Positions 31,877 to 57,263 of a stretch of 64,000 nucleotides of DNA are shown in pieces. Within the stretch, counting starts at the first letter, position 1, and the number at the start of each line of letters is the position of its first letter. Below the pieces are notes generated by a model. It was given only the letters and a program-made list of their open reading frames with translations. It was not told the origin of the DNA and ran no database searches. This DNA comes from Myxococcota bacterium (lineage in GTDB: Bacteria > Myxococcota > XYA12-FULL-58-9 > JALHOP01). The stretch is taken from contig JBGGMJ010000112.1 in assembly GCA_041288095.1 (NCBI GenBank), positions 146 to 64,145 on the forward strand, written 5' to 3'. The position numbers and the translations under genes were made by a program.

Positions 31877-33355
31877 TCAGTCGAGCCTACCGTCGGCGAG
31901 CTGCCCTGCCACGTCGTAGTCGCTGGCCTCGTCGATGACGATTTCGACCATCTGGCCGGGCGAAGCGGTCCCGCTGGTGATGTAGGTGACGCCGTCGATT
32001 TCGGGGGCCTGACCCTGGTGGCGGCCTTCCAGGAGGAGCTCGGTCTCCGAGGACACACCTTGGACCAGCACCTTGATACGGGAGCCGATCATCGCCTGGT
32101 GCTGCTCACGCGAGATGCCGCGCTGGAGCTCCATGAGGACCTCCTGGCGCTCCTTGGCGAGCTCGGGAGCGATCTGGCCCTCCATGGTGGCGGCCGGGGT
32201 GTCTTCTTCGGGCGAGAAGGTGAAGACGCCCATGCGCTCGAAGCGGATCTCTTCGACGAGGTCGCAGAGCTCCTTGAAGTCGGCGTCGGTCTCGCCGGGG
32301 AGGCCGGTGATGAAGGTGGTCCGCAAAACGAGACCGGGGACGGTGGCGCGGAGCTTACGCAGCAAGTCCTTGGTGGACTCACCGCCCTTGCCGCGGCGCA
32401 TGCGGCGCAACATGTCGTCGCTGATGTGCTGCAGCGGCATGTCGAGGTACGGCACGATGTGCTTCGAGCCAGCCATGACCTCCATGACCTCTTCGGTCAG
32501 GCCCTTGGGGTAGGCGTAGAGGCAGCGGATCCACTCGATACCGGTCTTGTCGAGCTCGCGGAGGAGCTTCGCCAGGTTCTCATCGCCGTCGCGGTCGTTG
32601 CCGAAAGCACAGAGGTCCTGGGCGATGAGGTTGATCTCGACGGTGCCCTGGTCCTTGAGGCGCATGGCCTCGTCGACGATGTCCGCGATGGCGCGCGAGC
32701 GCTGGGGCCCGCGCAGCTTCGGGATGATGCAGAACGAGCACGTGTTCGAGCAGCCCTCGCTCACCTTCAGGTATTGGCTGAAGAGCGCTTGGCTGGCCAC
32801 GCGAGGCGAACGCGAGGTGATGGTGAAGTCCGGATCGGGGATGCCCTCGCGAAGGTTCCCTTCGGCGGAGTGTCGATAAGGCACGAGCGCATTGCGGCCG
32901 ACGAGGCGGGCGTGGGGTTTCGGCTTGTGTTGCGGTGCGCCGAAGATGGGCAGCGAGGCGCGCGTCTTGGGGCCATGGTCGTGCTGTGTGCTATTGCGGA
33001 GTACGTCGGCGATGCCCTCGAAGTTGCCGGTGCCCAGGAAGTGATCGACTTCCGGGATCTCTTGCGCGAGTTGCGGCGCATACCGCTGCGACAGACAACC
33101 GGTGACCACGACCTTGCCTGCTTGACCCGCGGTCTTGAGCTTCACCATGTCGAGGATGGCGTCGACCGACTCTTCCTTGGCCGCGTCGATGAACGCGCAG
33201 GTGTTGACGACGATGACGTCAGCGCCCTCGGGCGCGTCAGCGTGCACGTAACCGTCAGCGGCCATGTGGCCGAGCATGACTTCGCTATCGACCCGATTTT
33301 TCGGGCACCCGAGAGATAGGAAATGGACGGTTTTCTTGGGGGAGGTACTGCTCAT
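31877..33355 (-). CDS. rimO: ribosomal protein S12 methylthiotransferase RimO (radical SAM)
   Basis: N-terminal MTTase block VHFLSLGCPKNRVDSEVM, radical-SAM CSNTCSFC, and a C-terminal TRAM domain. Start placed at the ATG at 33355 (MSSTSPKK); the track ORF extends to 33487. Confidence 0.85.
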   Translation of the reverse strand: MSSTSPKKTVHFLSLGCPKNRVDSEVMLGHMAADGYVHADAPEGADVIVVNTCAFIDAAKEESVDAILDMVKLKTAGQAGKVVVTGCLSQRYAPQLAQEIPEVDHFLGTGNFEGIADVLRNSTQHDHGPKTRASLPIFGAPQHKPKPHARLVGRNALVPYRHSAEGNLREGIPDPDFTITSRSPRVASQALFSQYLKVSEGCSNTCSFCIIPKLRGPQRSRAIADIVDEAMRLKDQGTVEINLIAQDLCAFGNDRDGDENLAKLLRELDKTGIEWIRCLYAYPKGLTEEVMEVMAGSKHIVPYLDMPLQHISDDMLRRMRRGKGGESTKDLLRKLRATVPGLVLRTTFITGLPGETDADFKELCDLVEEIRFERMGVFTFSPEEDTPAATMEGQIAPELAKERQEVLMELQRGISREQHQAMIGSRIKVLVQGVSSETELLLEGRHQGQAPEIDGVTYITSGTASPGQMVEIVIDEASDYDVAGQLADGRLD

Positions 33356-33448
33356 GCGCTGCTTCGACCTGGCGGCGCGGACCCTACAGATCGGGTGCCG
33401 AATCGGCAAGCCTGGATCGGTTGACAATCCACCTGCCAGGCGGGCCTT

Positions 33449-36127
33449 TTGCGGGCCATGCCGTCGCCCGCCCGGGTTTCCGTCCAATTTCTGCTCATCT
33501 CCGCGCTCGGCCTGAGCTACGCCGCTGGGTGCGGTTCCGAACCGTCCAAGGGGCAGCAGGACGAGGACACGGCCGATACCGACGACCTCGGCGGGGATGT
33601 CGACGATGGCGACGAGGACCTAGGGGACGGCGATGGCACGGTCGCTGGCGACGATCCTCCTCCGCCCCCTCCCCCGCCTCCACCCGCTCCAATCACGAAT
33701 GCGGGGAACGCGGCACGAACCGGTTGGTACGCGAACCAGCCCGGGCTGAATCCGGCCATCGTCGCCGGCACCACGTTCGGCAGACGATTCACCGTCGACC
33801 TCCCGGGCGGCCCGCTCGATCAGGTGTACGCCCAGCCGCTGGTGTTCGACGGGCGCGTCTTCGTCGTCACCGAGCTCAACAACGTCTATGCGCTGGATGC
33901 CGAGACCGGCGCGATCCTCGAATCGGCGAACCTCGGTGATCCCTGGGACACGGCCGATCTCGCGCCGGCTTGCCCTGACCTCGTCCCCAACATCGGCATC
34001 ACCGGCACTCCAGTGATCGACGCCGTCAATGCCGTCGCCTATCTGCTATCGAAGACATACGACGAGCCGAGTGGCGAGCCCGTCTACCTCGCGCACGCTC
34101 TCGACACCACGACACTCCTGGAGAAGCCGGGCTTCCCCATCGAAATCCAAGGCGTCGCCGATAACGACCCGAACGTTTCCTTCGCCCCGCTGTTGCATCT
34201 GCAGCGGCCGGGACTCTTGCTGCTCGATGGTGTCGTCTACGCCGCCTTCGGCGGGCAGTGCGATGTTGGCTTCTATAGCGGATGGGTCGTGGGCTTCACC
34301 CCGGAAGGCGTGGTCACCGCCATGTTCGCCGCGGAGACCGGCCCCGATTCCCTGCGCGGGTCGGGCATCTGGCAATCGGGCTCGGGTCTCATGGCCGACG
34401 ACGACGGGCGCATCTTCTTCGTGACCGGCAACAGCTTCTCGACGGCGGCTCGCTTGCCGACTCCGGGCGCGACGCCGCCGGGATCGCTCGGCCAAGCCAT
34501 GGTGCGTCTGCGGGTCGAGCCCAACCGCACGCTCGCGGCCGACGATTTCTTCATCCCGTACAACGTCCGCGCCCTCGACGATAACGACGTCGACTTCGGC
34601 TCCGGCGGTCCAGTGGCGCTGCCCGATGACGTCTTCGGCACCGACGCACACCCGCGTCTCGCCATCGCGGTTGGCAAGGTCGGGATCCTCTACGTCTTCG
34701 ATCGCGACGACTTGGGCGGTCACAAGCAGGGCGCGAACGGCGACGATGCCGTGCTCGGGCGCGTGAACCTCATCGGCGGCGCCTGGTCACGACCGGCGAT
34801 CTGGCCTGGCGACGGCGGGCTCGCGTACTTCGTGCTCAACAACGCGCGCATCCAAGTGATGCAATATGCGGTCGACGGCGCCGGCAACCCGTCATTCGCC
34901 AACATCGGCCAAGGTGAGACCGAGCTCGGTTACACCTCGGGGTCGCCCATCGTCACCTCGGACGGCACGACGTCCGGTACGGCACTCGTCTGGACAGTGG
35001 CAACCACCGGCGCCTTCGGCAACGGCGAGCTGCGCGCCTATGACGCGGTCCCCGACGAGGCGGGCGTCGTGCACCAGCGTTACGCCGACAGCTTTGGCGC
35101 CGCCACCAAGTTCTTCTCGCCGGGTGTCGGCGACGGTCGCCTGTATGTCGGCACGCGCGACGGCCGCGTCATCGCATACGGCGCGCCGGCCACCTCACCC
35201 GTCACGGTCGCCGCCACCGACTTCGGCACCGTCGTGGTCGGCAACACGGTGACCCGCACTGTGACGATCAGCGCCAACCAAGCGTTGTTGCTCGAGAGCA
35301 TCACCATCATCGACCCGGCGTTCACCGTCGACGTAAGTGCGCTCGCCTTGCCGGTCACCATGGCCGCCGGCGAAGAGATAAGCGTCGACGTCACCTTCGA
35401 GCCCGACGATTCCGGCCTCTTCTTGGCGACGCTCGATATCGGCACGTCGGTCGGCGACGCTTCCGCATCACTCCGCGGTAGCGGACAGACGGCCGGCCCG
35501 AAGCTCGTGCTCTCGTCGCCGTTCGTAAGCTTCGGCGGCGTCACCACCAACGACACCTTCACGGTCAACGTCATCGCCAAGAACGTCGGGGCGCAAGTGT
35601 TGATCTTCAGCGGCTCGACCGACCCGGCGTCGCCGTTCTTCACGCAGAATGTCCCCGCCGCCGCGAGCACGCTGGCGTCCGGAGCGTCGGTGACCTTCAC
35701 CATCGGCTTTCACCCCACGACGGCCGGCGCCTACGACGGCACGTTCACGCTCGCGAGCAACGGCGGTAGCGACAGCATCGGCATGAGCGGCACCGCGGCC
35801 GCGCCCGGTCACATGGTGATCACACCCATGACCGTCGACTTCGGCGACGTCGCCGTGGGCGACGAGGAGACCCAGTCGTTCACCGTCGCCAATGACGGTG
35901 GGACGTACATCGTCATCGCCAAATCGAAGCCGCCGATCACCGCCGGCTTCAGCGCCGTGAGCAGCCTCGATGAAGGCACCCGCATCAATCCCGGCGCCTC
36001 GCGCACCATCAACGTGAAGTTCGCGCCGGTTACAGTGAGCGCCGGCGCCGAGGCTTTCTGGACGATCACCGCGACGGACGGCCAAGGCGTGCAGAACGTC
36101 CGGCTCACCGGCAACGGCGTGCCCTAA
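33449..36127 (+). CDS. secreted lipoprotein with a PQQ-like beta-propeller followed by repeated choice-of-anchor-D/Ig-like domains
   Basis: Leader ...LISALGLSYAAGC, an acidic stretch, ten consecutive Pro codons, and PQQ-type repeats (NNVYALDAETGAIL). Four C-terminal roughly 100-aa repeats of the pattern DFG.V.VG...T..VT..N.G. Confidence 0.7.
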   Translation: MRAMPSPARVSVQFLLISALGLSYAAGCGSEPSKGQQDEDTADTDDLGGDVDDGDEDLGDGDGTVAGDDPPPPPPPPPPAPITNAGNAARTGWYANQPGLNPAIVAGTTFGRRFTVDLPGGPLDQVYAQPLVFDGRVFVVTELNNVYALDAETGAILESANLGDPWDTADLAPACPDLVPNIGITGTPVIDAVNAVAYLLSKTYDEPSGEPVYLAHALDTTTLLEKPGFPIEIQGVADNDPNVSFAPLLHLQRPGLLLLDGVVYAAFGGQCDVGFYSGWVVGFTPEGVVTAMFAAETGPDSLRGSGIWQSGSGLMADDDGRIFFVTGNSFSTAARLPTPGATPPGSLGQAMVRLRVEPNRTLAADDFFIPYNVRALDDNDVDFGSGGPVALPDDVFGTDAHPRLAIAVGKVGILYVFDRDDLGGHKQGANGDDAVLGRVNLIGGAWSRPAIWPGDGGLAYFVLNNARIQVMQYAVDGAGNPSFANIGQGETELGYTSGSPIVTSDGTTSGTALVWTVATTGAFGNGELRAYDAVPDEAGVVHQRYADSFGAATKFFSPGVGDGRLYVGTRDGRVIAYGAPATSPVTVAATDFGTVVVGNTVTRTVTISANQALLLESITIIDPAFTVDVSALALPVTMAAGEEISVDVTFEPDDSGLFLATLDIGTSVGDASASLRGSGQTAGPKLVLSSPFVSFGGVTTNDTFTVNVIAKNVGAQVLIFSGSTDPASPFFTQNVPAAASTLASGASVTFTIGFHPTTAGAYDGTFTLASNGGSDSIGMSGTAAAPGHMVITPMTVDFGDVAVGDEETQSFTVANDGGTYIVIAKSKPPITAGFSAVSSLDEGTRINPGASRTINVKFAPVTVSAGAEAFWTITATDGQGVQNVRLTGNGVP

Positions 36128-36324
36128 GGAGCCTCGTAAAACTCGCGAATGGCGGCGGTCTCTTGACCGAGCTCGGCGATCCAATAAGTCGTCGCACCCG
36201 CGTCCATGTCGCTGCCCTTCAAGCGCGCCATCACCTGCTCGGCCTCCTTGCGGGTGTCGCAGAGCGCGCGCGTGAGGGGTTTGCCGCGGCTCTCGGAACA
36301 GACGGCGTAAGCGACGCGGATCAT
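36124..36324 (-). CDS. small hypothetical protein (66 aa), last gene of the giant-lipoprotein operon
   Basis: The ATG at 36324 overlaps the stop of the upstream gene (ATGA at 36321-36324). Sequence MIRVAYAVCSESRGKPLTRALCDTRKEAEQVMARLKG... The longer track ORF (to 36465) would overlap the upstream gene by 140 nt. Confidence 0.45.
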   Translation of the reverse strand: MIRVAYAVCSESRGKPLTRALCDTRKEAEQVMARLKGSDMDAGATTYWIAELGQETAAIREFYEAP

Positions 36325-37376
36325 GCTGCGAGCTCCGGCAGGCGAATGGTGGTCGTTTCGGGCGCCTCGTCGGCCTTTAGCCCCTCGAAGCCGATGAGCT
36401 TGCGGTCGTGTCCCCAGCCGGGACCGAAGAACGCGACGCGCAGATCGGTGAGCGGCTCGTGCCACGCCGGATCGCTCACGTAGCGGGCCATCGACGGACG
36501 CAGAGTGACGACCACGAAGCCGTGCGGGGTGTCGGTCCTCAGGGTGCGGCCGGCGCAGACCATCACCTCGAAGGCGAGAGTGCGCGTGAAGGCCTGCAGG
36601 AAGCCGGCGGCGACCGCCCGTTGCACGAAGCAGATGCCTTGGCCCTGGGTGAAGAGAACGCCGGCCTTGTTACCGGTGTAACCCTCGGTGCCGGCGTAAC
36701 GCATGCGTTGGCGGGCGGCGAGACGCGAGATCAACCGCTCCTGCTCGGCCCTCACCGCATCGGGGTGGCCGGTGAAGTCCAGCGCTTCGAGGTCGTGCGC
36801 GAGGTCGATGTAGGCCGCGCAGATCTGCGCCTTCATCAACGGCTCGTTGTAGTCGACATGAACGTTGGCGAGCACTCCGCCCGATGACGGCACGCCGCGT
36901 GGCTCGTTCCATTCGTAGATGTCCGTTTTAGCGACACGCAGGAGAGCGGGCGCGCCCTCGAGCTCGAGCACGAAACGGTCGTCGTCCTCGCCCAAGAGCC
37001 GCGCACGGTGCGTGAAACCGAGCTCGGCGTCGGCGCGGTACTCGCCCACGGGGCGCTGCGAATCGCGGACGCGATGATTGACGTGCGCCTGCACGAAGAG
37101 CTCGCGGCCGAAGACGTACTTCGGCTCTTGCATGGCCTCGGTAAGACCGTTGGGGAGCTTGGCAAGCAGCCCCAAATCGAGCAGCTCTCCCGGGTGGGTG
37201 GCGCCGGTGATCGACGGCAGCGCCGCGAACAGCGCCCGCGATTCGGTGCTCGTCAGCTCGCCCGTCAAGGCGTCGATGCCCGTTGCTCGCTGAAAGCCCC
37301 CGCTCTGCACCAGCTCCTTGAGCCGGGCGACGGCTCTGCGGCTCATGTCGCCGTGCCAGGTTTGAGGGAGACTCAT
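36321..37376 (-). CDS. transglutaminase-fold (Cys-His-Asp) protein, cytoplasmic
   Basis: GQGICFVQRAVAAGFLQAF...(36 aa from Cys)...TPHGFVVV...(17 aa from His)...SDPAW reproduces the transglutaminase-core Cys/His/Asp order and spacing. No signal peptide. Confidence 0.55.
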   Translation of the reverse strand: MSLPQTWHGDMSRRAVARLKELVQSGGFQRATGIDALTGELTSTESRALFAALPSITGATHPGELLDLGLLAKLPNGLTEAMQEPKYVFGRELFVQAHVNHRVRDSQRPVGEYRADAELGFTHRARLLGEDDDRFVLELEGAPALLRVAKTDIYEWNEPRGVPSSGGVLANVHVDYNEPLMKAQICAAYIDLAHDLEALDFTGHPDAVRAEQERLISRLAARQRMRYAGTEGYTGNKAGVLFTQGQGICFVQRAVAAGFLQAFTRTLAFEVMVCAGRTLRTDTPHGFVVVTLRPSMARYVSDPAWHEPLTDLRVAFFGPGWGHDRKLIGFEGLKADEAPETTTIRLPELAA

Positions 37377-37425
37377 CGTGGGAAGATCATAGTGCAGAAG
37401 ACATGGCTCGCTCCAATTGTCGGCG

Positions 37426-38295
37426 CTACGGCCACTTCCTGCGAACCGTTACCACGAGGTTGTCCTCGACCCACCGCTTGGCGTCGGCCGCGCTCAGCCC
37501 CGGCCCGACGGGGCCTGGCGTTCGCAGGGCATCGAGCGTGCACTGCTTGATGCTCCGTCGCCACGCGGTTGGCAGCCGCTTGTCGAAGATCCACTCGAGA
37601 GCGCGGCCGGGCGGCACCGGATGAATCGACACGCCTTCCTTCTGATAGCGCCCGAAGTGACGAAAGGTTTGGTAGCACAGCTTGTTGGCGCCGAGCTCAC
37701 GCTCCGTCCCATGCCAGCTCTTGAACTCCTGATCGGCCTCACGAGCGCCGTCGCGTCTCCTCGCGTCTCGGAACTTGAGGTGGTCGCGGCCCGCTCCCCC
37801 AACCGCCGGCTCGATCTCGATGAGGCTATTGGGGAGGTTCTTCGCGGACTCGTGAATGGCGAACGCCGCGCCACGAGAAGGGTCCTTCGGATACACCGCG
37901 AACTCACGGGCAAGTCCCTCCAAGCGCTCGGTGGCGACGGGATCGCCGGCGAACTGCCGGGATAACTTCGCGTAGTCCGCAAGGGCTGCCTTCGCGGCGT
38001 CTGGGCCCAGCTCCTCGTCCAGGTTCGTGATCGCCTTGCCCAATCGCTTCAACGCCTCGTCGTTGCCGTGCTGCTTGCCGACGGTCGCGAGCATGCGCAG
38101 GAGACCTTCCTGCGCGTCCGGGTCGTTCTTGACGATCGCGGAGATGCGCGGGTTGGTGAAATGCGACTTGACCTGGTTGAAGAACGAAACACGCCCAGGC
38201 GACGACCCGGGCTTGATGCTCTTACGCTTGCCCGCTTCGGCGGACGACCCGACGAGCAGCACGGCAACCAGTAGAGCAATGATGGGCAGCTTCAT
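37426..38295 (-). CDS. secreted hypothetical protein (290 aa)
   Basis: Signal peptide MKLPIIALLVAVLLVGSSAEA. The ATG at 38295 overlaps the stop of the giant gene (ATGA at 38292-38295). No recognisable domain. Confidence 0.6.
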   Translation of the reverse strand: MKLPIIALLVAVLLVGSSAEAGKRKSIKPGSSPGRVSFFNQVKSHFTNPRISAIVKNDPDAQEGLLRMLATVGKQHGNDEALKRLGKAITNLDEELGPDAAKAALADYAKLSRQFAGDPVATERLEGLAREFAVYPKDPSRGAAFAIHESAKNLPNSLIEIEPAVGGAGRDHLKFRDARRRDGAREADQEFKSWHGTERELGANKLCYQTFRHFGRYQKEGVSIHPVPPGRALEWIFDKRLPTAWRRSIKQCTLDALRTPGPVGPGLSAADAKRWVEDNLVVTVRRKWP

Positions 38296-41200
38296 GGCGT
38301 CGTGCCCTCCAGCTCCGTCGCAAGCGGCACGACTCTCCTCATCAACGCGTCGAACGCGGCCGGCTGCAGCTCTTCGTGGAGGTGGTACCAAGCGAAGACG
38401 TCCGTGACGTTCGAGAAGCCGGCCATCACGTCGTCACCGAAATTCTGCGCCTGGGTCTGCAAGGTGGCGACGAAGGATTGTGCGCCGGCGACCCATCGCG
38501 GCCATGAGTCGCCCGCGAGATGTTTCGCGGTGACCTCCATGAATTGCGCTATAGCGGTCGAAGCGAGCTCGTCCTTGACGTTATCAGCGACCTGTTTGAG
38601 CAGGCGCTTCGAGACGGTGACCACGGCAGCACGTACGCCGCCAGCCGCGACAGAAGCGCCTCCAGCCGTAACGATGTCACCGATAAGCCCGAGCACCGCG
38701 AAACCGACGTTGAGCATGCTGACTTCGTCGCATCCACTCGCGGCCTTGTAGGCTTCCTGGGCGAGCGTTCTCAGGCTGCCGACGAACGGCAACATCTCGC
38801 TCGCCCATGCCGCGGCGCGCTCGTACCAGGCGGGGCTCTCACCGATGCCCTCGGTGCCCATCATGAAGGCCTTGCCCGCGGCGACGAGGTGACCCCACAG
38901 GGACTTCGGACACGCGGTCACCGTGACTTCGTTCTGCGTCGAGCCCGAGACGACTAGGCGTGCTTCGACCGGGCCGTAGACGGTCGGGCCACCAGCGTTT
39001 GGATCGATGCGCATGATGAGCAGCGCGTCGCCGTTCGCGTCCGTGCGGATTGTGCCGTCCGCGGCGAGGCCAACGAGCTCGAACATCGACTCGCCGCCGC
39101 CGTGCTTGACGAAGCGCAACTCATCGATGTGTCCTCTAAAACCGACACCGACGTCGACGTCCGCGGTTGAAACCGGAACCGCGACCGCGCCGAGAATCGC
39201 GAATGCGCCGTCACGCGCGGCGCCGGTTGGCTCGACGGACAACCGCAGTGAGCGACCGTCGAAGTACACTTCGGCTCGGGTCCAGGCTCCGATGGGCACG
39301 TCGATTGGGCTCTCCACGGACGCCGCCGTGCCTGCGATCTCGAAACGCAGCCGGTGCGCCCCGCTCGGATCCCGAACGAGCCGTAGCGCATACTGCCCCG
39401 GGCGCTGCAGGACCGTGGCGTTGCCGGCCACGGCCGGCCGCAGCGCTAGCGAAAAGACCATGCCGCCGGCGAGATCGTTGACCGGTGCGGCGGGGGCCAC
39501 GACCCGCGCCGAGCCATCGAAGCGCATCGAGCCCTGACCCTCGGCGGTCACACCGCTGTCGAGGACGGCGCCGCGGACTTCACCTTGGTTGCGGCCATCG
39601 ATGTCGGGAGTGAGGTCGCCCGGCAGGACCGTGTCGAAGGGATAATACGAGGAGAGCGTCCACACCGTCGGATCGACGACGTCGACTTTGTGCACGTGGC
39701 CCGGTTGACCGCGTAAGCGGACGGTGGTCTCGTTGTAATACGGCACGCCCAGGAGCCCGTCGTCTTCGGTTGCCCACGGGTGGGCTGCTCGCTCGCCACG
39801 GTCTTGGAGCGTCTCGACGAAGACGACACCGCCCGCACCGCTGCCACCATCGCTGGCCAAGACGTCGTGCTCGATGGCGATGGTCGTCGGGCTACTCGTG
39901 GTCCACCGCATCCCCGGCTCGCTCGCGACCGCGCCGACCGTGCCGACACTCGCGGTCACGAAGACGTCGCCCAGCTTGGCACTCTCGGCCGTGACCTCGA
40001 TGCTGGCGACGCCGCCGGCGTCGGTAGGCACGACGCCACCGAGAGGCGCGAGGCGACCATTACTGGAGCTGAACTGGACGGAGGCGTTGCGCAAGTACAC
40101 GCGGCCACCGCTTGGACTCTCGCGGTAGACCCAGACTTGGACGCGGCGCCGATCACGCTTGAGTAGGTCCGGCGCGAGAAACGTCGCCAGATCTCCGCTC
40201 GTCATGGTGCCGAGTGGCTTCCGCTCGATCTTCAGAGGGCCGAGCACCGGCGGCAATGGCGCTCCGCCTTCGAGCACGGAGCCGTTCGCGGGCGCCGTGG
40301 TAGTGCCGGTCGCGATGACGATCTGGCTGGGGTCCAGAGCGGGCGTCTGCTGCCACGGACAGCTCGGATAGCGTGTCTGCTTGAAGACGATACTGACTTT
40401 GCCATCGCCGTCGGTGAGGCCGCGCATCGCTTCCTCGGGTACAGGCACGGCGTCATCGGGCTGGTTCGGGTCGAAGGTCGCGCCCAAGAACCCACTGCCT
40501 TCGATGCTCCAGCTAACCTCGCGTCCTTGTTCGAGTGGATTGAGAAACCGGTCGAACATGTAGACGTCGATCGTCGCTTCCTCAGCCGAGCCGACGGGAG
40601 CAATGAAGCGGCTCGCGCCCCAATCTCGGCGTACATCGGAAAGCGGCCTGCCCCAGAGGCTCCCGGGCCTGAATGGCTGTGTCGGGTTGGTGACGTGATA
40701 GGTCTTCGAGCCCGGGACGACGCGTACCGCGAGCGACGCGGTCAAACGCTGACCATCCCCCGCCACGGCTCTCACGGTAACGTCGAACGTGTCGCCCGCT
40801 TTGGCGGACTTACCACCCGCGATGGCGTGCCAGAAGGAGAGGATCGCGAGCGACTCCGCGCCCTTCACCGGATGGTCGTCCAAGCGCGTACTACCGTTGC
40901 CGGCGGAGAAACCGGACCAGAGTTGCGGCGAGCCCGGGCCCCGCACTTCCCAATCGACCGTCAGGTCATCGGGCAAGACGCGACTTGGCAAGGCGACATC
41001 TGGCCGCAGCAGGGCGACGAGATTGACCGCGAGCTCCACCTCGCCGCCGTCGGCGTCGAACGCGACGTTGTCGGCGGCGACCTCGACCACTCCCGAACGA
41101 TCGTACGCATCGACCTGGGGCTCTCCCGCGACGAGCTCGAGCGTCCAGCCGACGACCCGCAAGACGATCTCATCGCTGCATTCCGCGGCGCACGGGGTCT

Positions 41201-44057
41201 GTTTGGCCTCGAGAATCACCGAGCCCTTGGTGACACCTTCGACGGCGAGCTCGAGATCGGCGGTACGCACGTCCGACCAGAGGTCACGGCTCTCGCTTGC
41301 GTTGGGCTCGAGGATGCTCACCCAGGCGCCGCCTTGCTTGGCGAAGACGCGCACCCGCCCCGTTCCGCGTTGGCGGACACGCAGCTCGCCCCAAGCGGTG
41401 TCGGCGACGTCCTGCGGTGCGCGCAGGACGAGGTTCACCAGGTCCTTCTCGTCCTCGGGGCCGTTGACCTCGTCGTCCTGGTTGTCCGGGGTGTGGTCGA
41501 GGTCGTCGTCGTCGCCGTTGAGGAAGGCACCCGCGCCGGTCGAGAGATCTTCCTCGTTCTCGTCGTCGTCATCGATGCTGTCGTCGTGGTTGGCGTCGAC
41601 GTCGAGATCGATGGTCGTACCTGGCCAGGTGCCCGCGACCTTGTCGTAGCGCCAGTGGGCTCGCTCGCCCCGCTTGCGAACGACGAGATGCCGGTCGGGA
41701 ACACGCGCGTCTTTGCTGATGACGACGAACGGCTCCTTGGTGACGAACTTGGAGACGACGGTCGGCGCATAAGCAATGCCTGTCGGTGTGCCGATGGCCA
41801 TGACGACGCGTGACGTCGAACCCTCGGGCTCGAGCTCGAAGTCCTTGTCGGCGATGTAGAACGGCCCCTTGTTGCCGCGTGCGTCGGTGACACGCGCAAA
41901 ACCAGGGTCGAAGCAGCCACGCGGAGCCGGCTCACCGATGTCGACGCCATCGACCACCCACGTGTCGTCGTCGGGGTCGTTGGCAACGCCTTCGTCGACA
42001 TGGGCGCGCACCGTGAAAGGGGTTTCACCTTCGAGACCGATGAGATTCGGACTGGTGCGCAAGAAGATGGTGGTGCTCGGCTCTTCGAGCTGGAAAGTGA
42101 GAGGTCGGTCGAGCTCGCCCACATACGGATACGGACGCAGGCGTGTCCCTGGCGTCGGGCGAACGTGCGTAAGCGCGAGGTGCGTCTCCGGGTCGTCGAG
42201 ATCGTAAACGTGGTCGATGTTGGCGCCGTTGCCGGGCACCAAGTCCGAGAGCCGGTCCAGCACGCGTCCGCGAAGGTGGACGGAGGCGCGGTCCTCGTCG
42301 AGGACCTGCACCGACGATTGGGGAATGGGATCGAGCTCGATGAGGGGGCGCGTTTGCGTCGCGACCGCCGGCAACGTTTCACGATCGGTGTCACCGTCGA
42401 GACGGGCCACACGCACGTCGGTGACTCGTAGAGCGTCGGAGCAAGTCGGCGCTCCAGGCTCGGGTCGCACGATGGCGCGAATCTGGAGATCAGCCTGCGA
42501 ATCGCTCGGCTGGATCCCCTCGACGTAAAACGTCGTGACGCGCCCGCCGCCGGGGAAATGCTTGGACGGTACGTACTCACGCCCCGGAGCGACGTAGTCA
42601 CCGTTCAGGTCGAGAGGTTGGACGAGGCGCTCGGCCTCTCCGTTCTTGCTCCAAACCCTCAGCCGCCCAGACGCTGGTGTGTGCCGCGGCGGACCCGACG
42701 TCGAATAGCTCGCGGTCAACGCTCCCGGATCGGAGGCTTCGTACTCGAACGTCACCGTCGCTTTGTCGAGGTCGATCGGATCGGGTAGCTCTAGGACCAT
42801 GGGCACGAAGGCCGCGCTCGCGTCAGGCGCGAGCTGATTGTCCTTGTCGATGCCGTCAGCCCAATCGGGCACGCAGTCGTCGTCCTCGTCGCCGAGGTTC
42901 ACCGGCACGATCTTCCCGTCTCTACAGAGATCGTTTTCGATCAGATCCTCGATGTCGTCGCGCTCTGGTCCGCCTTGGCGGCCGTCGTCGTCGGGGCGCA
43001 CCGTGTTGTCGCTGTCGATGTCGAGATCGATGGCGATGACTTTGATCTCGATCTTCTTGGACTTGTCCTGATCGATGGCCTGCAGCAGCGAGTCACGGGT
43101 GCGGATGGTGATTTGCTCGACCCCCGGCTTCTTGGGCGCGACGTAGATGGCGGTCGAAGTCCATCCAGGCGTGGTCGGGTTGCCATGGTGATCGGGATAC
43201 GAACCGCGCAACGCGCCGAACGTGTGATGCACCTCGTCCGGGATTTCCATGCTCATGGCGCTGTCGCCGCATGGTCCTTTGCAGCTGAACGAGTAGCGAT
43301 CGTTATCGATGCCGGCCGCGTTGAAGATGTAGCGCTCGCCCGCGCACACGTACGGGGGAATCACTGGGCCGTGGTCGAGAGCCGGATCGCGGAGCCAGGC
43401 GTGCTTGTGGTGGCCGCAACCGCACTCCTCGTCATACGGAAAACCACCGTCATCCATGGCGCCAGGGTCGGTGATGACGATGGTGCGAATGTGCAGCGTG
43501 TAGCCGCAAGCCGCGGCCAACGTCTCGAACGTCAGCCGGAACTCGACGAGAGCCGATGTGTCGTTGCCGCGACTGTCCGCGATCTCGGCCATGATGCGGA
43601 CCAGCGTGGGGTTGCTCGGCAGCGCTTCCGGCGGCTCGTAGATGATCGACGGGCCAGCGCTGTTGCGCAGACGTCCTGGCCCAATGAGGGTCCAACCGAA
43701 GGCGACGGGATCGGTGATCTCGAGCCACTGATCGAGGGCACACTCCGACTCGCCTTCGCGACAGCCGCAGACCGTGACCATGTCGTCCAGATCGGCACCG
43801 CTGATGATGAACGGCATGGGCTCGAGGCGCTCGATCGTGCGCGTCCCCGCTGGTGGCTCGATGATGGCGGCACTGATGCCCGCGCCGGGATCGATCCCCG
43901 AATCCGAAAAACACGCCCCTTGCAGCTCGGGCGGTGGCCGCTGCTCGCTCGGGGGCGCTGGGGGCGCCTTCGGCCGGCCCGGTTTCTCCGGCGGCGCAAT
44001 GCCACACGCGAAGACGACGCTCAAAAACAACGCGAGGCAAGGCCTCGAGAAGCCCAT
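38292..44057 (-). CDS. giant surface lipoprotein (1921 aa) with acidic Ca-binding-like modules, Ig-like domains, a LamG domain and a pre-toxin-like C-terminus
   Basis: Leader MGFSRPCLALFLSVVFACG, with the ATG at 44057. The track start at 44165 abuts the tRNA-Leu and is unlikely. Two D-rich modules (IDLDIDSDN..., IDLDVDANHDDSIDDDDENEE...). LamG_3-like block at about 39098-39533. C-terminal LPFVGSLRTLAQEAYKAASGCDEV...GLIGDIVTAGG is followed by a roughly 120-aa helical tail. Confidence 0.8.
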   Translation of the reverse strand: MGFSRPCLALFLSVVFACGIAPPEKPGRPKAPPAPPSEQRPPPELQGACFSDSGIDPGAGISAAIIEPPAGTRTIERLEPMPFIISGADLDDMVTVCGCREGESECALDQWLEITDPVAFGWTLIGPGRLRNSAGPSIIYEPPEALPSNPTLVRIMAEIADSRGNDTSALVEFRLTFETLAAACGYTLHIRTIVITDPGAMDDGGFPYDEECGCGHHKHAWLRDPALDHGPVIPPYVCAGERYIFNAAGIDNDRYSFSCKGPCGDSAMSMEIPDEVHHTFGALRGSYPDHHGNPTTPGWTSTAIYVAPKKPGVEQITIRTRDSLLQAIDQDKSKKIEIKVIAIDLDIDSDNTVRPDDDGRQGGPERDDIEDLIENDLCRDGKIVPVNLGDEDDDCVPDWADGIDKDNQLAPDASAAFVPMVLELPDPIDLDKATVTFEYEASDPGALTASYSTSGPPRHTPASGRLRVWSKNGEAERLVQPLDLNGDYVAPGREYVPSKHFPGGGRVTTFYVEGIQPSDSQADLQIRAIVRPEPGAPTCSDALRVTDVRVARLDGDTDRETLPAVATQTRPLIELDPIPQSSVQVLDEDRASVHLRGRVLDRLSDLVPGNGANIDHVYDLDDPETHLALTHVRPTPGTRLRPYPYVGELDRPLTFQLEEPSTTIFLRTSPNLIGLEGETPFTVRAHVDEGVANDPDDDTWVVDGVDIGEPAPRGCFDPGFARVTDARGNKGPFYIADKDFELEPEGSTSRVVMAIGTPTGIAYAPTVVSKFVTKEPFVVISKDARVPDRHLVVRKRGERAHWRYDKVAGTWPGTTIDLDVDANHDDSIDDDDENEEDLSTGAGAFLNGDDDDLDHTPDNQDDEVNGPEDEKDLVNLVLRAPQDVADTAWGELRVRQRGTGRVRVFAKQGGAWVSILEPNASESRDLWSDVRTADLELAVEGVTKGSVILEAKQTPCAAECSDEIVLRVVGWTLELVAGEPQVDAYDRSGVVEVAADNVAFDADGGEVELAVNLVALLRPDVALPSRVLPDDLTVDWEVRGPGSPQLWSGFSAGNGSTRLDDHPVKGAESLAILSFWHAIAGGKSAKAGDTFDVTVRAVAGDGQRLTASLAVRVVPGSKTYHVTNPTQPFRPGSLWGRPLSDVRRDWGASRFIAPVGSAEEATIDVYMFDRFLNPLEQGREVSWSIEGSGFLGATFDPNQPDDAVPVPEEAMRGLTDGDGKVSIVFKQTRYPSCPWQQTPALDPSQIVIATGTTTAPANGSVLEGGAPLPPVLGPLKIERKPLGTMTSGDLATFLAPDLLKRDRRRVQVWVYRESPSGGRVYLRNASVQFSSSNGRLAPLGGVVPTDAGGVASIEVTAESAKLGDVFVTASVGTVGAVASEPGMRWTTSSPTTIAIEHDVLASDGGSGAGGVVFVETLQDRGERAAHPWATEDDGLLGVPYYNETTVRLRGQPGHVHKVDVVDPTVWTLSSYYPFDTVLPGDLTPDIDGRNQGEVRGAVLDSGVTAEGQGSMRFDGSARVVAPAAPVNDLAGGMVFSLALRPAVAGNATVLQRPGQYALRLVRDPSGAHRLRFEIAGTAASVESPIDVPIGAWTRAEVYFDGRSLRLSVEPTGAARDGAFAILGAVAVPVSTADVDVGVGFRGHIDELRFVKHGGGESMFELVGLAADGTIRTDANGDALLIMRIDPNAGGPTVYGPVEARLVVSGSTQNEVTVTACPKSLWGHLVAAGKAFMMGTEGIGESPAWYERAAAWASEMLPFVGSLRTLAQEAYKAASGCDEVSMLNVGFAVLGLIGDIVTAGGASVAAGGVRAAVVTVSKRLLKQVADNVKDELASTAIAQFMEVTAKHLAGDSWPRWVAGAQSFVATLQTQAQNFGDDVMAGFSNVTDVFAWYHLHEELQPAAFDALMRRVVPLATELEGTTP

Positions 44058-44165
44058 GCGCTGTGCCCACTTTCCGCTGCGATTTCCGAAATACCCCAAC
44101 AGGGAGGGTCGGGACGAGGACCAATGGACGTCCGGCTCGCGGCGCGATACAGACGCAGCTGCCAC

Positions 44166-44247
<82 letters not shown>

Positions 44248-44285
44248 CTTGCCAGTGCCGCCGACGACATCACACTTTGCCTGCT

Positions 44286-45160: not shown

Positions 45161-45188
45161 CCGATAACCGCCGTCGATAACGGGGGCC

Positions 45189-46463
45189 ATGGCTAGCCCC
45201 CAAGCTCTCTATTCGAGGTCCGAAGCCCACCGCAGTGGCGCGTCCACCGACTACGGTCGTTCGGTCAGCCAATACCCCTTGGGCGTGCTCTTCCCGAAGT
45301 GCGTCGGCGAGATCGAAAAGCTCATCCAGCACGCGGCGGCGGAGAAGCTGCCCGTCACTGTCCGCGGTCGCGGGCACTCGGTCTACGGCCAAGCGCAGAT
45401 CGCTGGCGGCGTGGTCATCGACACGCGTGACCTCAATGGCATTCGTTGGTCGGGACCAAACACCATCGACGCGCAGCCCGGCGCCTTATGGCTCGACGTC
45501 GCCAAGCTCGCGTTGCAGCGCGGACTCACGCCGCCGGTCGTACCCGATGTCGGTGTGACCCTGACGGTCGGTGGCATGCTCAGCGTCGGCGGTCAGGGCG
45601 AGACCAGCCACAGGCATGGTGCCCTGGTCGACAACCTGGTCGAGCTCGAAGTGGTGACCGGCCGCGGCGACCGCGTCGTCTGCTCACCGTTCCGCAATCG
45701 CGACCTGTTCGACGCCGTGCGCGCGGGCATGGGTCAGTGCGGCGTCATCGTGCGGGCGCGGCTGAAGCTCATTCCGGCGCCGAAGGTCACCGCGACGGCG
45801 ATCACGACCACCACCCCGGGCGAGTGGCTCGCTACCCTACGCGAGAAGACCCTCGCCAACGAGGCAGCCGTGACCGGCTCGCTGGTGAAGACGGCGGACG
45901 GCTGGCAGGGTCGCGTCATCGACACCGCCTTCGACCCGCCAGTCGTGGGCCCAAGCACCACGTACTTCCAGTATCTCGACCGCAACACAGCGAGCTACCA
46001 AGCGAGCGAGCGCAACGGCGACGTCCTGCTCCCGCATCCCAACATGTCGTTCTCCGTTCCAGCGGACGCCGCGCCGGCGCTCCTCGAGCGCATCTTGAAG
46101 GATCCCGAGATGACGTTGGGGATCCAGCGCATCAACGCGTCGTTCCATGACGCCTCGAAGTTCGGCGCCCCACTGCTCGCCAAGCCCGCCAGCTCGCACG
46201 CCTTCCAGCTACGGTTGAACAAGCAAGCGGCGGCGCCCGGCAGCGACGCCCACATGCGGATGCTCGCCGCGAATCGTCAGCTCATGACCGAGCTCCTGGC
46301 GATGGGCGCGAAGGTCTACTTGCCGTACGCTCCCCCACCGACCCGGGCGGACCTCGTCGCGCAATACGGAGACGAGCGCCTGCGTGCTTTCGCGGACATG
46401 AAGAAGCGATTCGACCCAGCCGGCATCTTGGGCCAGGGTGCGTTGGCCGCGCTGACGCAGTAG
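45189..46463 (+). CDS. FAD-linked oxidase (PCMH/FAD_binding_4, cytokinin-dehydrogenase-like)
   Basis: LPVTVRGRGHSVYGQAQIAGGVVIDTRDLNGI, GVTLTVGGMLSVGGQGETSHRHGALVDNLVELEVVTGRGD, and DLFDAVRAGMGQCGVIVRARLKL are typical of the family. Confidence 0.8.
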   Translation: MASPQALYSRSEAHRSGASTDYGRSVSQYPLGVLFPKCVGEIEKLIQHAAAEKLPVTVRGRGHSVYGQAQIAGGVVIDTRDLNGIRWSGPNTIDAQPGALWLDVAKLALQRGLTPPVVPDVGVTLTVGGMLSVGGQGETSHRHGALVDNLVELEVVTGRGDRVVCSPFRNRDLFDAVRAGMGQCGVIVRARLKLIPAPKVTATAITTTTPGEWLATLREKTLANEAAVTGSLVKTADGWQGRVIDTAFDPPVVGPSTTYFQYLDRNTASYQASERNGDVLLPHPNMSFSVPADAAPALLERILKDPEMTLGIQRINASFHDASKFGAPLLAKPASSHAFQLRLNKQAAAPGSDAHMRMLAANRQLMTELLAMGAKVYLPYAPPPTRADLVAQYGDERLRAFADMKKRFDPAGILGQGALAALTQ

Positions 46464-46469
46464 GCGTGC

Positions 46470-49400
46470 TTATTTGGCCCGGCGCAGCGCCATACCCAGC
46501 GCTTCACGGAGCTTGAAGTAGTTGTCGGAGAGCGAGAAGCGGAAGAGGTCGAGGGCTTCCGGGCTCTCGAGCAGCACCGCGGCGCGCTGGTCGTCGCGAA
46601 CGTCGTCGAAGCCGCGCAGCCGCAACACCGCCGCGATGGCGTCCTCGACGTCGCACGAGAGCAGCAGCGCCGAGCGGCCCGCCGTCGCGAGGCAGGCGCG
46701 TCGCCACTTGCCGAGGTCGAGCTCGCCGTAGCGGTTCATATAGGTCTTGGCGCGGTCCCGCAGCGCCGCGCGGATCTGCTCGGTCATGGGCTGCCCGATG
46801 ATGTTCGCCCAGGCGCCGCTCGACGGACCGGACCCCGGAGGCGTCGCGCCCGGAATGAGTGCCATGCACAACGCGGCCGCGAGAGCTTCGAGCTCCATCG
46901 GCGGCAGGCGCTCACAAAGCGTGTGGCCGCTCCGATAGAGCTCGGCGGCACGCGCCACCAAGAAGGCTCGCTGGCGCTGCGAGGCATCGCTCGCGAGAGT
47001 CGAGCCCAGCAAGATGGTGGGAGTCGCGACGAGCTCGGCCTCGCAGGCGAAGCCGCCGCCGCGCCACAAATAGAGGCCGACTTGTTGCAGACCGAGAGGC
47101 TCGAGCACCTTCGTGAGCCACTTCACGCGCTCATCCGTCGGCGCCAGCAAATCGCGCTCGTCGACGCCTCGGAGCTTCAAGTTGCCCGGGTGAGTCAGCT
47201 CGGCGAAACGGGCGAGCGGCGCGAACAGCTCTTCGACCGTGCCGAGCTGTTCGGGATGAACGAGGCCCTGAGCTCGGTCCGCGTCGGTGAGCGCGCGCTG
47301 CGGGCCCGGCGGCATGGCGTTGCGACAGGCCGTGACGAAGCGCTTGCCCTCGGCATCGTTCGGCGCGAGCACGAGGAGCGCGGCGTAGTAGCCGTAGGCT
47401 CGGTCGGTGTCGCCAATCTGGCCCGAGAGGCGCGCCGAGATCTTGAGCAGATCGAGATTGAGCGGATCGGCATCGAGCAACGTCGCGTACAGCTCCGCCG
47501 CCTGTCCGTAGCTCGTGGCGTCCAGCGCGTAAGTGTCGGCGAGTCGCCGCGTCATGGTGGCGTCGGTCGGATCGAGCTCACGCGCTTTGAGCATGAGCGC
47601 CGCCGCCTTCGCGGGGGTCTTGAGCTCGCGACCCACGACGTCGGCGAGCACTTGGTAGCGGCGGGCGCGCTCTTGGGTGTCTTCGATCTGCTCGATGTTC
47701 TGCTCTTCGAGCGGCGCCCAGATCGCGTAGTCGCCGGTCGCCAGCGCCAAGCGCAGGAACGTCTCGCGAAGCTCGCGTGACTGTGGCGCCATCTCGACCG
47801 CTTTGGCGATCAGTGCCTTGGCGCGCTCGGGATCTCCGACGTCTTCTTCGTAGGCGCGCGACAAGCGGCCGTAGAAGGCGGCATCGAGTGTACCTTCGGG
47901 CGCATTGGTGATGAGACGCTCGCCGACGAGCGCGAGCTTCGTCCCTTGCTTGGTGGCGTCGTAGACCGCGAACAGCTCTCGCGATAGCCCGATGTCGTTC
48001 GGGTCGATCTCGTGCGCCTTCTCGAGGTGCTTGGCGGCGCGAGCTTGGTCGTTCAAGTGCTCGCGATACGTGCTTGCGAGCGCGCGATGCTGTTCGAGCT
48101 GCTCCGACACATCCGTCGCAAGCGCGAGCTCGCGAGCTCGCAAGGCAACCGCGTCGGCGAAGCTGCCGTCGGCTTCGTGCAACGACCGCATCCCGCGGAT
48201 GACCGTCAGCGACTCGGGTGTGAGCTGGTACGCCGCCTCGTAGTGCGCCATCGCCTGGCGGCGGTCGAGGTGGCGCAGGGCGTGGCGCGCGAGCCTCTCG
48301 TGCACACCCGCGATCATCATCGGGTCGGCGTCGCTGCTGACGCTGTCGAGATAGCGGTGCCACTCGTCCGCGGCAGCCTCCACGTCGCCGGTCTTCTCGA
48401 GGAGCTCGGCGCGCGCCACACGAGCGTCGACCCGCGTTGGGTCGCGCTCGGCGATGCGCGTGGCCACGGTGAGCGCCCCCGCGTCGTCGCCGGTCTCCTT
48501 GAGCGTCTCCAGGAGCGCAAGCCACTGTTCGATAGGAGCGTTGTCGCCGCGGGCATCGAGCTGAGCCTTGAGCAACGGCAGTGCGCGCTCGTACTTGCGG
48601 CGAGCGTAGGCGAGCAAGCCGAGCTCGAGCTGCGCGCCTGGATGCTCGGGGTCTTCGGCGAGTGCTTGCTCGAGCGCGGTCTCGGCACCGTCTTCGTCGA
48701 AGAGGTATTCCTTCCAGATCTGGGCTTTGCGATAGAGGCTGTCCGCTTTGTCGGACGAGTCCTTGGCGCGCCGCGCTCGCTCGTCGTGCATGTCGGCGAC
48801 GAGCTGCCACTCGCCGCGTTTTCGGTAGAGGTGCTCGAGCGCCTCGAAGGCGCGCTCGTGCACTGGTCCGTCACCAACGCTCACGGCCTGACGGTAGGCT
48901 TCGATCGCGGGATCGGGCTCACTCGCCGCCTCGTGAGCTTGGCCCAAGAGGTAGAGCCAATCGAGGCGCTCGCTGCCGCGCGACGAAGTCGCTCGCGTCA
49001 GGATCTGCTCGCGCACATTGGCGGCGGACTGGACGACGAAGACCGCGCGATTGTCGTCACCGAGCTCGAAGGCAAGCTGGTAGGCGCGTCGTAGGGCGTC
49101 GGGCGACGGGTCCGGCGTGTCGATGGCGCTGATGAAGTGGCGGAGCGCTTGCTGCGGATCACCGAGCGCCATCGCGGCTTCGCCGGCCTCGGCATGCAAT
49201 GCCAGCCACTCTTTGCCCTGGAAGTCGTGAACGTTCGCGAGCCGTGCCTCGACCTCGCGGAGCACCGCCTCGCGGTCGCCTTCGGCACGCGCTTTCGTCA
49301 GCCGCACCCCGGCCGCGAAGCTGGTGTCTGGATGACGCTGGGCAAGCCACTGGGCGAGCTGCTCGGCGTCGCCGGTGCTGCCCACCCCGCGGAGCGATTC

Positions 49401-57177: not shown

Positions 57178-57251
<74 letters not shown>

Positions 57252-57263
57252 CCTAAACAATCA

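Follow-up and report, generated by a model that had tools for sequence, protein, structure and literature searches.

A giant, probably lipid-anchored exported protein and its apparent split-off terminal domain form an accessory cassette beside a conserved gene pair in a Myxococcota bacterium

Four consecutive genes on the minus strand of a 64,000-nucleotide stretch of Myxococcota DNA (contig JBGGMJ010000112.1; hereafter the window) raise the question of whether their close packing marks a single unit, a giant lipoprotein with its accessory genes, or something more composite. The first gene, g1 (38292-44057), begins with an ATG at 44057 and encodes a 1921-aa giant protein that is predicted to be exported and is probably a lipoprotein. 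On the same strand it is followed by g2 (37426-38295; 289 aa), a predicted Sec-exported partner with a helical N-domain and a PD-(D/E)xK-like core, then by g3 (36321-37376; 351 aa), a conserved Myxococcota protein that stands outside the g1-g2 module, and g4 (36124-36324; 66 aa), the translationally coupled partner of g3. ATGA stop/start overlaps join g1 to g2 (38292-38295) and g3 to g4 (36321-36324), the g2 ATG is preceded at 10-15 nt by a GGAGGG, and g2 and g3 stand 49 nt apart. Each of the four has homologs elsewhere, which makes them real genes rather than chance open reading frames (ORFs), and the G+C content was about 66% throughout the window. An earlier note on this DNA had reported the four ORFs and both overlaps, which the sequence bears out; its length of 290 aa for g2 was measured here as 289 aa, while the signal peptide it gave to that protein stood. 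The note had also called the set a four-gene operon. The genes are indeed physically contiguous, but synteny gives two evolutionary units instead of one, and the locus is a composite in which an accessory cassette, g1 and g2, lies beside a conserved core-genome pair, g3 and g4. Adjacency and ATGA coupling had disguised two unrelated gene pairs as one operon, and the gene order of sister genomes resolved the matter immediately.

For this comparison the contigs of g3 homologs were retrieved. The closest relative (L026, GCA_964484195.1) has about 83% nucleotide identity to the window and contains neither g1 nor g2. Its gene order is collinear with the window through a 3500-aa TPR protein, a rhomboid gene, the tRNA, g3 and g4, and the collinearity continues past g4 into an ASH/Ig gene, a MiaB-like radical-SAM gene and a PocR histidine kinase. 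In blastn alignments L026 8925-9924 matched window 45160-44159 and L026 9994-15486 matched window 37383-31877, with 69 nt in L026 corresponding to 6775 nt in the window. The resulting 6.8-kb insert (37384-44158) consists of g1 and g2 flanked by 101 nt on the upstream and about 42 nt on the downstream side, and it begins a few bases from the 5' end of a tRNA-Leu gene with anticodon TAG (44166-44248, plus strand; ARAGORN), abutting its 5' side. The same empty junction (tRNA, about 70 nt, g3) was observed in the independent assemblies L027-L029, L033 and L034. A further genome, L032, carries an unrelated filler of about 475 nt with an 87-aa ORF in the slot between the tRNA and g3; blastx and hidden Markov model (HMM) searches ruled this filler out as a remnant of g1 or g2. 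As an accessory cassette the g1-g2 pair is strain-specific, and the slot that it occupies, between tRNA-Leu(TAG) and g3, is variable. GC and GC3 of both genes were only slightly below those of their neighbours, and neither an integrase nor any terminal repeat, direct or inverted, was seen at the insert ends.

The other half of the locus has a separate history. We found 68 homologs of g3 (43-91% identity), mostly in Myxococcota or 'Deltaproteobacteria' metagenome-assembled genomes (MAGs), and g3 was present without g1-g2 in L026-L034. An ORF of 64-70 aa overlapping the g3 stop was observed in L026 and L028-L034, and in the distant L030 g3 and its small overlapping partner still lie beside a MiaB-like gene. 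The supposed linkage of g3 and g4 to the giant gene was thereby replaced by that of a conserved pair found in many genomes lacking the cassette, and the function of g3-g4 is probably unrelated to that of g1-g2.

What the cassette encodes is best seen in its relatives. Comparison of sequences places g1 and g2 in a rare family of giant exported proteins that spans several phyla; the two genes jointly make up its split form. In ten relatives of g1 (P0075, P0080, P0081, P0082, P0085, P0089, P0090, P0091, P0097 and P0102) the helical domain that ends g1 is followed by 300-740 extra residues homologous to g2. Blastp of g2 against the extensions of P0075, P0080, P0082 and P0089 gave E values of 4e-9 to 2e-8, all ten extensions carry the motifs of g2 (alignment A3), and P0082 and P0080 are each encoded at their locus by one unbroken gene. 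Where the protein is split, a g2 homolog lies directly downstream of the giant gene in six of six loci (the window, L001, L035, L036, L039 and L040), a count that takes in every 'short' family member with a readable locus. The g2 start overlaps the giant-gene stop by ATGA in four of these (the window, L001, L035 and L036), and every split copy has a signal peptide of its own (6/6 loci). One of the six, L039, comes from a low-G+C genome with type IX secretion system (T9SS) neighbours. In the window the g2 leader reads MKLPIIALLVAVLLVGSSAEA/G, and translation and hydropathy place the signal peptide at residues 1-21, ending AEA/G (38233-38295, minus strand); it is present in all split-type homologs. 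We therefore regard g2 as the apparent split-off terminal domain of the giant protein, fused elsewhere and encoded here by the next, translationally coupled gene with its own predicted Sec signal. The linkage of g2 to g1 suggested in the earlier note is tight and conserved, but the role it offered for g2, that of an immunity or accessory gene, does not hold: a protein fused to its neighbour's end in ten relatives is a partner domain and not an immunity protein. No match was obtained when g2 was searched by tblastn against phage and plasmid collections.

The giant protein itself starts with MGFSRPCLALFLSVVFAC/G and has a lipobox-like VFAC/G at residues 15-19 (Cys18). This signal peptide (44004-44057, minus strand), read from the translation, is the most hydrophobic 19-mer of g1, and g1 homologs likewise begin with signal or lipobox leaders. 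The description of g1 as an exported, probably lipid-anchored, multi-domain protein without a characterised counterpart was borne out. Searches of g1-g4 against Pfam and NCBIfam returned nothing for g2, g3 or g4 and, for g1, only sub-threshold Pfam matches to PAD_M, Big_1 and Laminin_G_3; no NCBIfam family of any kind and no PADLOC defence family matched any of the four.

Alignments divided g1 into a variable N-terminal half and a family-constant C-terminal half covering residues ~970-1921 (38295-41150, minus strand). Nearly all long blastp alignments of g1 to 45 HMM matches run from residue ~950-1090 to the end, while the N-termini differ. Pfam analysis of the relatives gave heads of PA14, SdrD_B or PKD and a shared part of Big_1 and LamG; the same analysis on g1 and its homologs located a Big_1-like part (39936-40094) and a LamG-like part (39111-39437) in the constant half of g1, both on the minus strand. 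The LamG block that had been noticed before recurs in homologs, but in g1 it gave only a sub-threshold Pfam match (Laminin_G_3, E 0.01, residues 1541-1649). Full-length homologs of g1 include P0076 (38% identity) and P0001 (32%). The layout of the family is a leader, a variable adhesin-type N-terminal half, a constant Big_1-LamG part, a helical end domain of about 200 aa and a terminal domain of about 270 aa. Judged from these alignments, such an arrangement of variable heads on a constant tail is the reverse of a polymorphic toxin.

The variable half of g1 contains an acidic 'IDLDIDSDN...DGIDK' module (residues 338-550; 42408-43046, minus strand) that is common to P0002-P0004 and to 24 loci from Planctomycetota and other MAGs. 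A second, diverged copy (residues 816-942; 41232-41612, minus strand) matched Pfam PAD_M with an E value of 3.7e-5, just under the family cut-off, and a DNA direct repeat, D1, joins 41564-41614 and 42983-43033 in the two copies. The PAD_M match covers the second g1 copy only. Giant proteins from MAGs of Planctomycetota, Phycisphaerae, Verrucomicrobiota and Kiritimatiellia (loci L002-L025) carry this acidic module of about 210 aa. It is tripled in P0002 and occurs in P0003, a protein whose end is PT-HINT.

An exhaustive HMM search using g1's C-terminal domain gave 46 proteins, about 35 of them true members, and the family is thus rare (~35 among 1.8 billion cluster representatives) while spanning several phyla. 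Matches that aligned in multiple stretches (P0101, P0103, P0108 and others) were excluded as unrelated proteins built of 51-53-aa tandem repeats, having only the motif 'GCDSV..LNLT' in common with the family. These proteins contain 15-36 tandem repeats with 'T-x-GCDSV-x2-LNLT' and match the profile solely through TGCDxVSxLNVT; the likeness is probably chance or convergent. A word-index homolog search had found only four g1 relatives, missing P0076 and returning nothing for the C-terminal 207 aa. The apparent rarity of g1 in that search was misleading because it reflected a limitation of the search, the exhaustive HMM having found the family, and the uniqueness of the g1 C-terminus suggested by the empty result was rejected (P0001 aligns at 113 bits). 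A pattern scan of genome contigs, with patterns from the acidic N-terminal module only, found 24 Planctomycetota-type loci, all without the C-terminal half and of no use for judging orthology, and scans of metagenome contigs with patterns from the helical end domain and g2 found no relatives. Among the fused members, P0082 (L037 6001-13464) is longer still at the C-terminus, where the additional extension closes with a genuine Transglut_core domain, and its gene adjoins CsgG-like and FapBC (functional amyloid) genes.

The end of g1 had been described as a module resembling pre-toxin TG (PT-TG) at 38650-38798 followed by a motif-less tail of about 120 aa, within a model in which g1 is a SitA-like polymorphic lipoprotein toxin with the tail as its tip and g2-g4 as accessory or immunity genes in one operon. 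We found instead that the region belongs to a helical C-terminal domain (CTD) of about 200 aa (residues 1715-1921; 38295-38915, minus strand), defined by a 26-sequence alignment (A5) and an AF2 model. Invariant in this alignment are, in g1 numbering, P1757, E1768, K1771, G1775-C1776-D1777, V1779, G1799 and W1855, and an Asp in the 'tail', distal to W1855, is near-invariant. Conservation is highest in the first ~100 columns, and the tail is alignable in all 26 members. The AF2 model has nine helices (pLDDT 75, pTM 0.48), and a fold search of the model against the Protein Data Bank (PDB) gave no match (best E 2.4). Neither the C-terminal 202 aa nor the C-terminal 302 aa of g1 matched PT-TG (PF14449) in hmmscan at E<=10, and 0/26 family CTDs matched it at E<=1. 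Four of the 26 CTDs gave weak SseC-like matches, probably from Ala/Gly-rich helices, and a helix at 1779-1805 is borderline hydrophobic (KD19 1.4-1.8 across members). The domain is followed in the ten fused relatives by a linker of ~70-100 aa and then the g2-like domain, whereas in the window it forms the end of the protein.

In the literature PT-TG is a linker of little order, in which a loop of about 15 residues containing a Gly, an Asp, an Arg and a TG motif is conserved (PMC13483458). The CTD is like it in preceding a nuclease-like terminal domain in the fused relatives and in having a short stretch with D, R and (T/S)-G, but it is unlike it in lacking an HMM match in 26 members and in being predicted to form packed helices within a domain of about 200 aa. 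Its motif, (S/G)-D-L-R-T-L...(T/S)-G-C-D, is placed by the AF2 model in helices of the folded domain. We know of no PT-TG features corresponding to the invariant Cys-Asp and the distal Trp of the CTD. In these searches 38650-38798 showed no HMM or structural likeness to PT-TG or to any toxin module, the tail is part of one conserved domain, and the C-terminus including the tail, expected to vary together with the next gene, is the constant part of a family whose N-terminal half varies. The CTD is, as far as alignment and model can tell, one conserved all-helical domain with no swappable toxin tip.

The SitA-like model is favoured by the lipobox-like leader of g1, by the tight packing with ATGA overlaps, and by P-x4-D-x-R-T-L...(T/S)-G-C-D, which loosely recalls the G/D/R-plus-TG signature of PT-TG (PMC13483458). 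These features are outweighed by the lack of PF14449 in all 26 members, by a tail that lies in the same conserved domain (W1855 invariant, the later Asp near-invariant) and is not swapped among homologs, and by the fusion of g2 downstream of the CTD in ten relatives, which an immunity protein could not show. In addition, g3-g4 lacks g1-g2 in every relative examined, no NCBIfam family matched, and SitA1, at 62.6 kDa (PMC5562445), is about a third as large as g1. We consider this model very improbable. In comparison with SitA as described (PMC5562445), g1 has a similar type II signal with a lipobox (VFAC/G, with an atypical Phe at -2) but differs in its constant C-terminus, in having no sitI-like downstream gene and in giving no Pfam or NCBIfam match.

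In 14 sequences that are only 15-30% identical, the g2 residues G142, P163 (I-E-P), D177 (F-R-D), E190 and K192 (V-E-x-K) are invariant, and E162, Q209 and W275 are near-invariant. A structure prediction run on an 11-sequence alignment gave an AF2 model (pLDDT 75, pTM 0.75) with an N-terminal helical bundle at residues 33-134 and a core of H140-152, E158-161, E178-182, E185-192, H203-219 and E232-237, that is, αβββαβ, in which D177 is predicted to open strand 2 and the ExK to lie in strand 3. This order, αβββαβ with the D placed at strand 2 and the ExK within strand 3, is the core topology of PD-(D/E)xK proteins. The core so delimited (residues 140-237; 37585-37878, minus strand) was defined from alignments A3 and A4, the AF2 topology, weak Foldseek matches and a NERD match in the L001 homolog. 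The last of these falls exactly over D...ExK but is marginal (13.7 bits, below the cut-off of 22.1). Foldseek against the PDB gave weak matches, the best being Cdn1 (E 0.069) and CdiA-CT (E 0.12), in a top list enriched in PD-(D/E)xK nucleases (Cdn1, CdiA-CT 4g6u and 4zqu, OkrAI and arenavirus cap-snatching endonucleases). Against BFVD one match was significant (E 7.5e-5), a 918-aa fragment annotated as an M12 peptidase, and it was followed by many weak matches (E 0.03-0.7) to 'endonuclease-like' or (phage) restriction-endonuclease proteins. PDB sequence and profile searches with g1, the CTD, g2 and g3 returned nothing meaningful. A PD-(D/E)xK-like fold for g2 is likely. Relative to that superfamily, g2 has the D, the ExK, the E before P, the following Q, the predicted αβββαβ core and a preceding helical domain; it is unlike its members in being Sec-exported and in showing no significant HMM or fold match to any of them. 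Neither the helical end domain nor the g2 module is covered by a Pfam or NCBIfam model, and neither has a fold relative in the PDB.

A fold of this kind need not be catalytic, and the cassette might be a structural system in which g1 is an adhesin or envelope scaffold and g2 a structural, anchoring or chaperone-like protein that uses a restriction-endonuclease-like fold for binding only. The body of adhesin-type modules, with Big_1, LamG, PA14, SdrD_B and PKD in the relatives, fits this account, as does the lack of a significant enzyme-family match for g2 and the CTD, and a missing immunity gene would be natural for it. It has more difficulty with the pattern of conservation, in which full or near invariance falls exactly on the catalytic positions (D, ExK, the E-P before them and the Q after them). 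Such conservation at 15-30% identity argues for a retained active site rather than a degenerate fold; g2 is accordingly a putative enzyme by its sequence, and we think the non-catalytic alternative distinctly unlikely.

The explanation that we favour, though tentatively and at somewhat less than an even chance, is a surface-tethered nuclease or effector, in which the exported g1 scaffold presents the nuclease-like g2 outside the cell. Both products would be exported, with g1 lipid-anchored in the envelope or at the surface. Binding of g1 to a target may involve its Ig-like, LamG and Ca-binding acidic modules, and its helical end domain would dock g2, non-covalently in the window and covalently in the fused relatives. 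As a metal-dependent phosphodiesterase (nuclease) of the PD-(D/E)xK type, g2 would work outside the cytoplasm of the producer, with extracellular nucleic acid or that of a contacted cell as its substrate. An effector-type role for g1-g2 is possible.

The genes that follow the g2 module bear directly on this proposal. In the window the next gene is g3, of the core genome; L036 and L037 have convergent genes there, for a kinase and a SPOR protein respectively; L038 has a PQQ propeller and L039 a T9SS PKD giant protein; and in L035 and L040 the place is taken by small ORFs that are unrelated. No conserved downstream or immunity gene was present among the window and L035-L040, the genes after g2 being mutually unlike. 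This matters for a competing explanation, a contact-dependent or secreted antibacterial or predatory nuclease toxin with g1 as delivery scaffold, the CTD as pre-toxin or translocation module and g2 as toxin domain, for which immunity would be encoded elsewhere, be lineage-specific, or be needless where self lacks the receptor. The order of domains does parallel CdiA, Rhs and colicin-type toxins, and the g2 model, with its helical N-domain and PD-(D/E)xK-like core, has CdiA-CT structures among its top, if weak, Foldseek matches. The conserved borderline-hydrophobic helix and the weak SseC-like composition matches of the CTD also fit this explanation, the cassette is accessory, patchy and tRNA-adjacent, the acidic N-terminal module also occurs in the PT-HINT-bearing P0003, and small ORFs come after g2 in L035 and L040. 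Set against these observations, there is no conserved downstream gene, the terminal module is of the same family in every member and hence not polymorphic, no orphan cassettes were present, and no Pfam or NCBIfam toxin family or PADLOC defence family was matched. The separate Sec signal of the split g2 is also awkward for a domain that needs delivery by g1. We judge such a toxin unlikely. The constant terminal module, its own Sec signal when split and the lack of a conserved immunity gene together favour the tethered nuclease or effector over an immunity-protected polymorphic toxin.

Several points weigh against the tethered nuclease. A giant surface protein with a helical domain and a nuclease-like end also resembles contact-dependent toxins (CdiA, Rhs, colicins), and the small unrelated ORFs after g2 in L035 and L040 could be private immunity genes. 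No sequence or fold match of g2 to a known nuclease was statistically significant (best PDB Foldseek E ~0.07), the only significant BFVD match being the 918-aa fragment of unnamed function with its M12 peptidase annotation, and secreted PD-(D/E)xK nucleases are uncommon. Docking by the helical end domain is suggested solely by fusion and adjacency, and g1 is a probable rather than certain lipoprotein, as its lipobox is non-ideal at the Phe. Whether the cassette was gained or lost was judged by parsimony, and no mobility signature was found.

A broader claim can be attached to the tethered nuclease, namely that the family represents an undescribed class of envelope-displayed effectors, consisting of a head-variable scaffold and a constant PD-(D/E)xK nuclease put together outside the cytoplasm from two separate Sec-exported polypeptides, or made as one fused protein in other phyla, with a new helical docking or translocation domain and no need of an immunity protein. 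We offer this with low confidence. It is possible that an effector displayed in this way serves Myxococcota and other phyla as a DNase for predation or on contact, with self spared through receptor specificity and not through immunity.

The closest known kinds are polymorphic toxin systems and giant Ig/LamG adhesins, and g1-g2 has neither the variable tip nor the cognate immunity gene of the former. With polymorphic toxins of the CdiA, Rhs, MafB and SitA type (Zhang et al. 2012, PMC3482391; Vassallo et al. 2017, PMC5562445) it shares a large exported protein with an N-terminal signal, an extended body of repeats or Ig-like domains, a helical module and a nuclease-type end, at an accessory, strain-variable locus, and with a lipobox leader as in myxobacterial SitA. 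It differs from them in its constant terminal module and variable N-terminal half, in lacking orphan cassettes and any known pre-toxin (PT-TG, PT-HINT, VENN) or toxin Pfam family, and in having the terminal domain as a separate gene with its own Sec signal in six loci. Giant adhesins with Big_1, LamG and PA14 (invasin/intimin-like, Bap/Lap-like) resemble g1 in their modular Ig- or lectin-like body, acidic Ca-binding-type repeats, variable heads and surface exposure, the last being presumed for g1. Such adhesins do not end in a helical CTD and a nuclease-like module, and g1 differs in secretion and anchoring, having no type I secretion system (T1SS) RTX end, β-barrel or LPXTG. The fused-versus-split architecture and the lack of an immunity gene are what is unusual in g1-g2. 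Should g2 prove to be an active exported nuclease that docks on g1, the pair would exemplify deployment of a nuclease at the cell surface outside the toxin-immunity rule, and the fused and split forms would then be a natural example for studying how effector modules are assembled after export. The helical end domain and the g2 module would be new entries for toxin and secretome annotation.

Placement of the cassette may also affect its neighbours. Upstream of g3, L026 (9950-10000), L033 and L034 have a common palindrome, CCAAGTCAAGAACTTGG, and a TAGACT box, and window 37377-37425 contains neither CCAAGTCAAGAACTTGG nor TAGACT, with insert-derived sequence there instead. A terminator scan found no terminator-like site between g2 and g3; a promoter scan found no sigma-70-like site, a scan that is uninformative for Myxococcota promoters. 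Given the missing palindrome and box and the lack of a g2-g3 terminator, g3-g4 may be co-transcribed with the insert, and reading through from it, in the window.

The g3 product had been assigned a transglutaminase fold with a Cys-His-Asp triad, an assignment that we could not uphold: g3 has no Pfam, NCBIfam or PDB match, and the triad is not conserved. Among 18 g3 homologs, three have Ser and one has Asp in place of Cys249, two have Arg in place of His285, and only Asp302 is invariant. Comparison of the g3 family by hhalign with the genuine Transglut_core end of P0082 gave a probability of 0.1%. In its usual setting g3 with its 64-70-aa partner is followed by a MiaB-like radical-SAM/TRAM gene, a gene of about 230 aa and a PocR-HisKA kinase gene, and the pair has no Pfam model. 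Window genes belonging to this neighbourhood lie at 31877-33487 and 29613-31112, both on the minus strand, and it was also seen in L030 and L032. An 892-aa ASH/HYDIN-type Ig-domain gene (33449-36127, plus strand) is convergent with g4 and shares 4 nt with it. This gene occurs in the clade of the window and L026, but in L030 and L032 it is missing from the interval that separates g4 and the MiaB-like gene, and it would therefore be another lineage-specific insertion.

On the other side of the cassette, a second variable slot was observed one gene away, at window 45161-46467 against L026 7071-8924. In the window it holds a FAD_binding_4/cytokinin-dehydrogenase-like oxidase gene (45189-46463, plus strand) between the TPR giant gene and the rhomboid gene, and in L026 a 589-aa PLDc_2 gene. 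The TPR giant gene itself (46470-57116, minus strand) encodes a 3548-aa protein made almost wholly of TPR repeats, with a 3513-aa counterpart in the sister genome. Upstream of it, a Fic/SoFic-type adenylyltransferase gene (57421-58512, plus strand) adjoins a tRNA-Met gene (57178-57253, plus strand).

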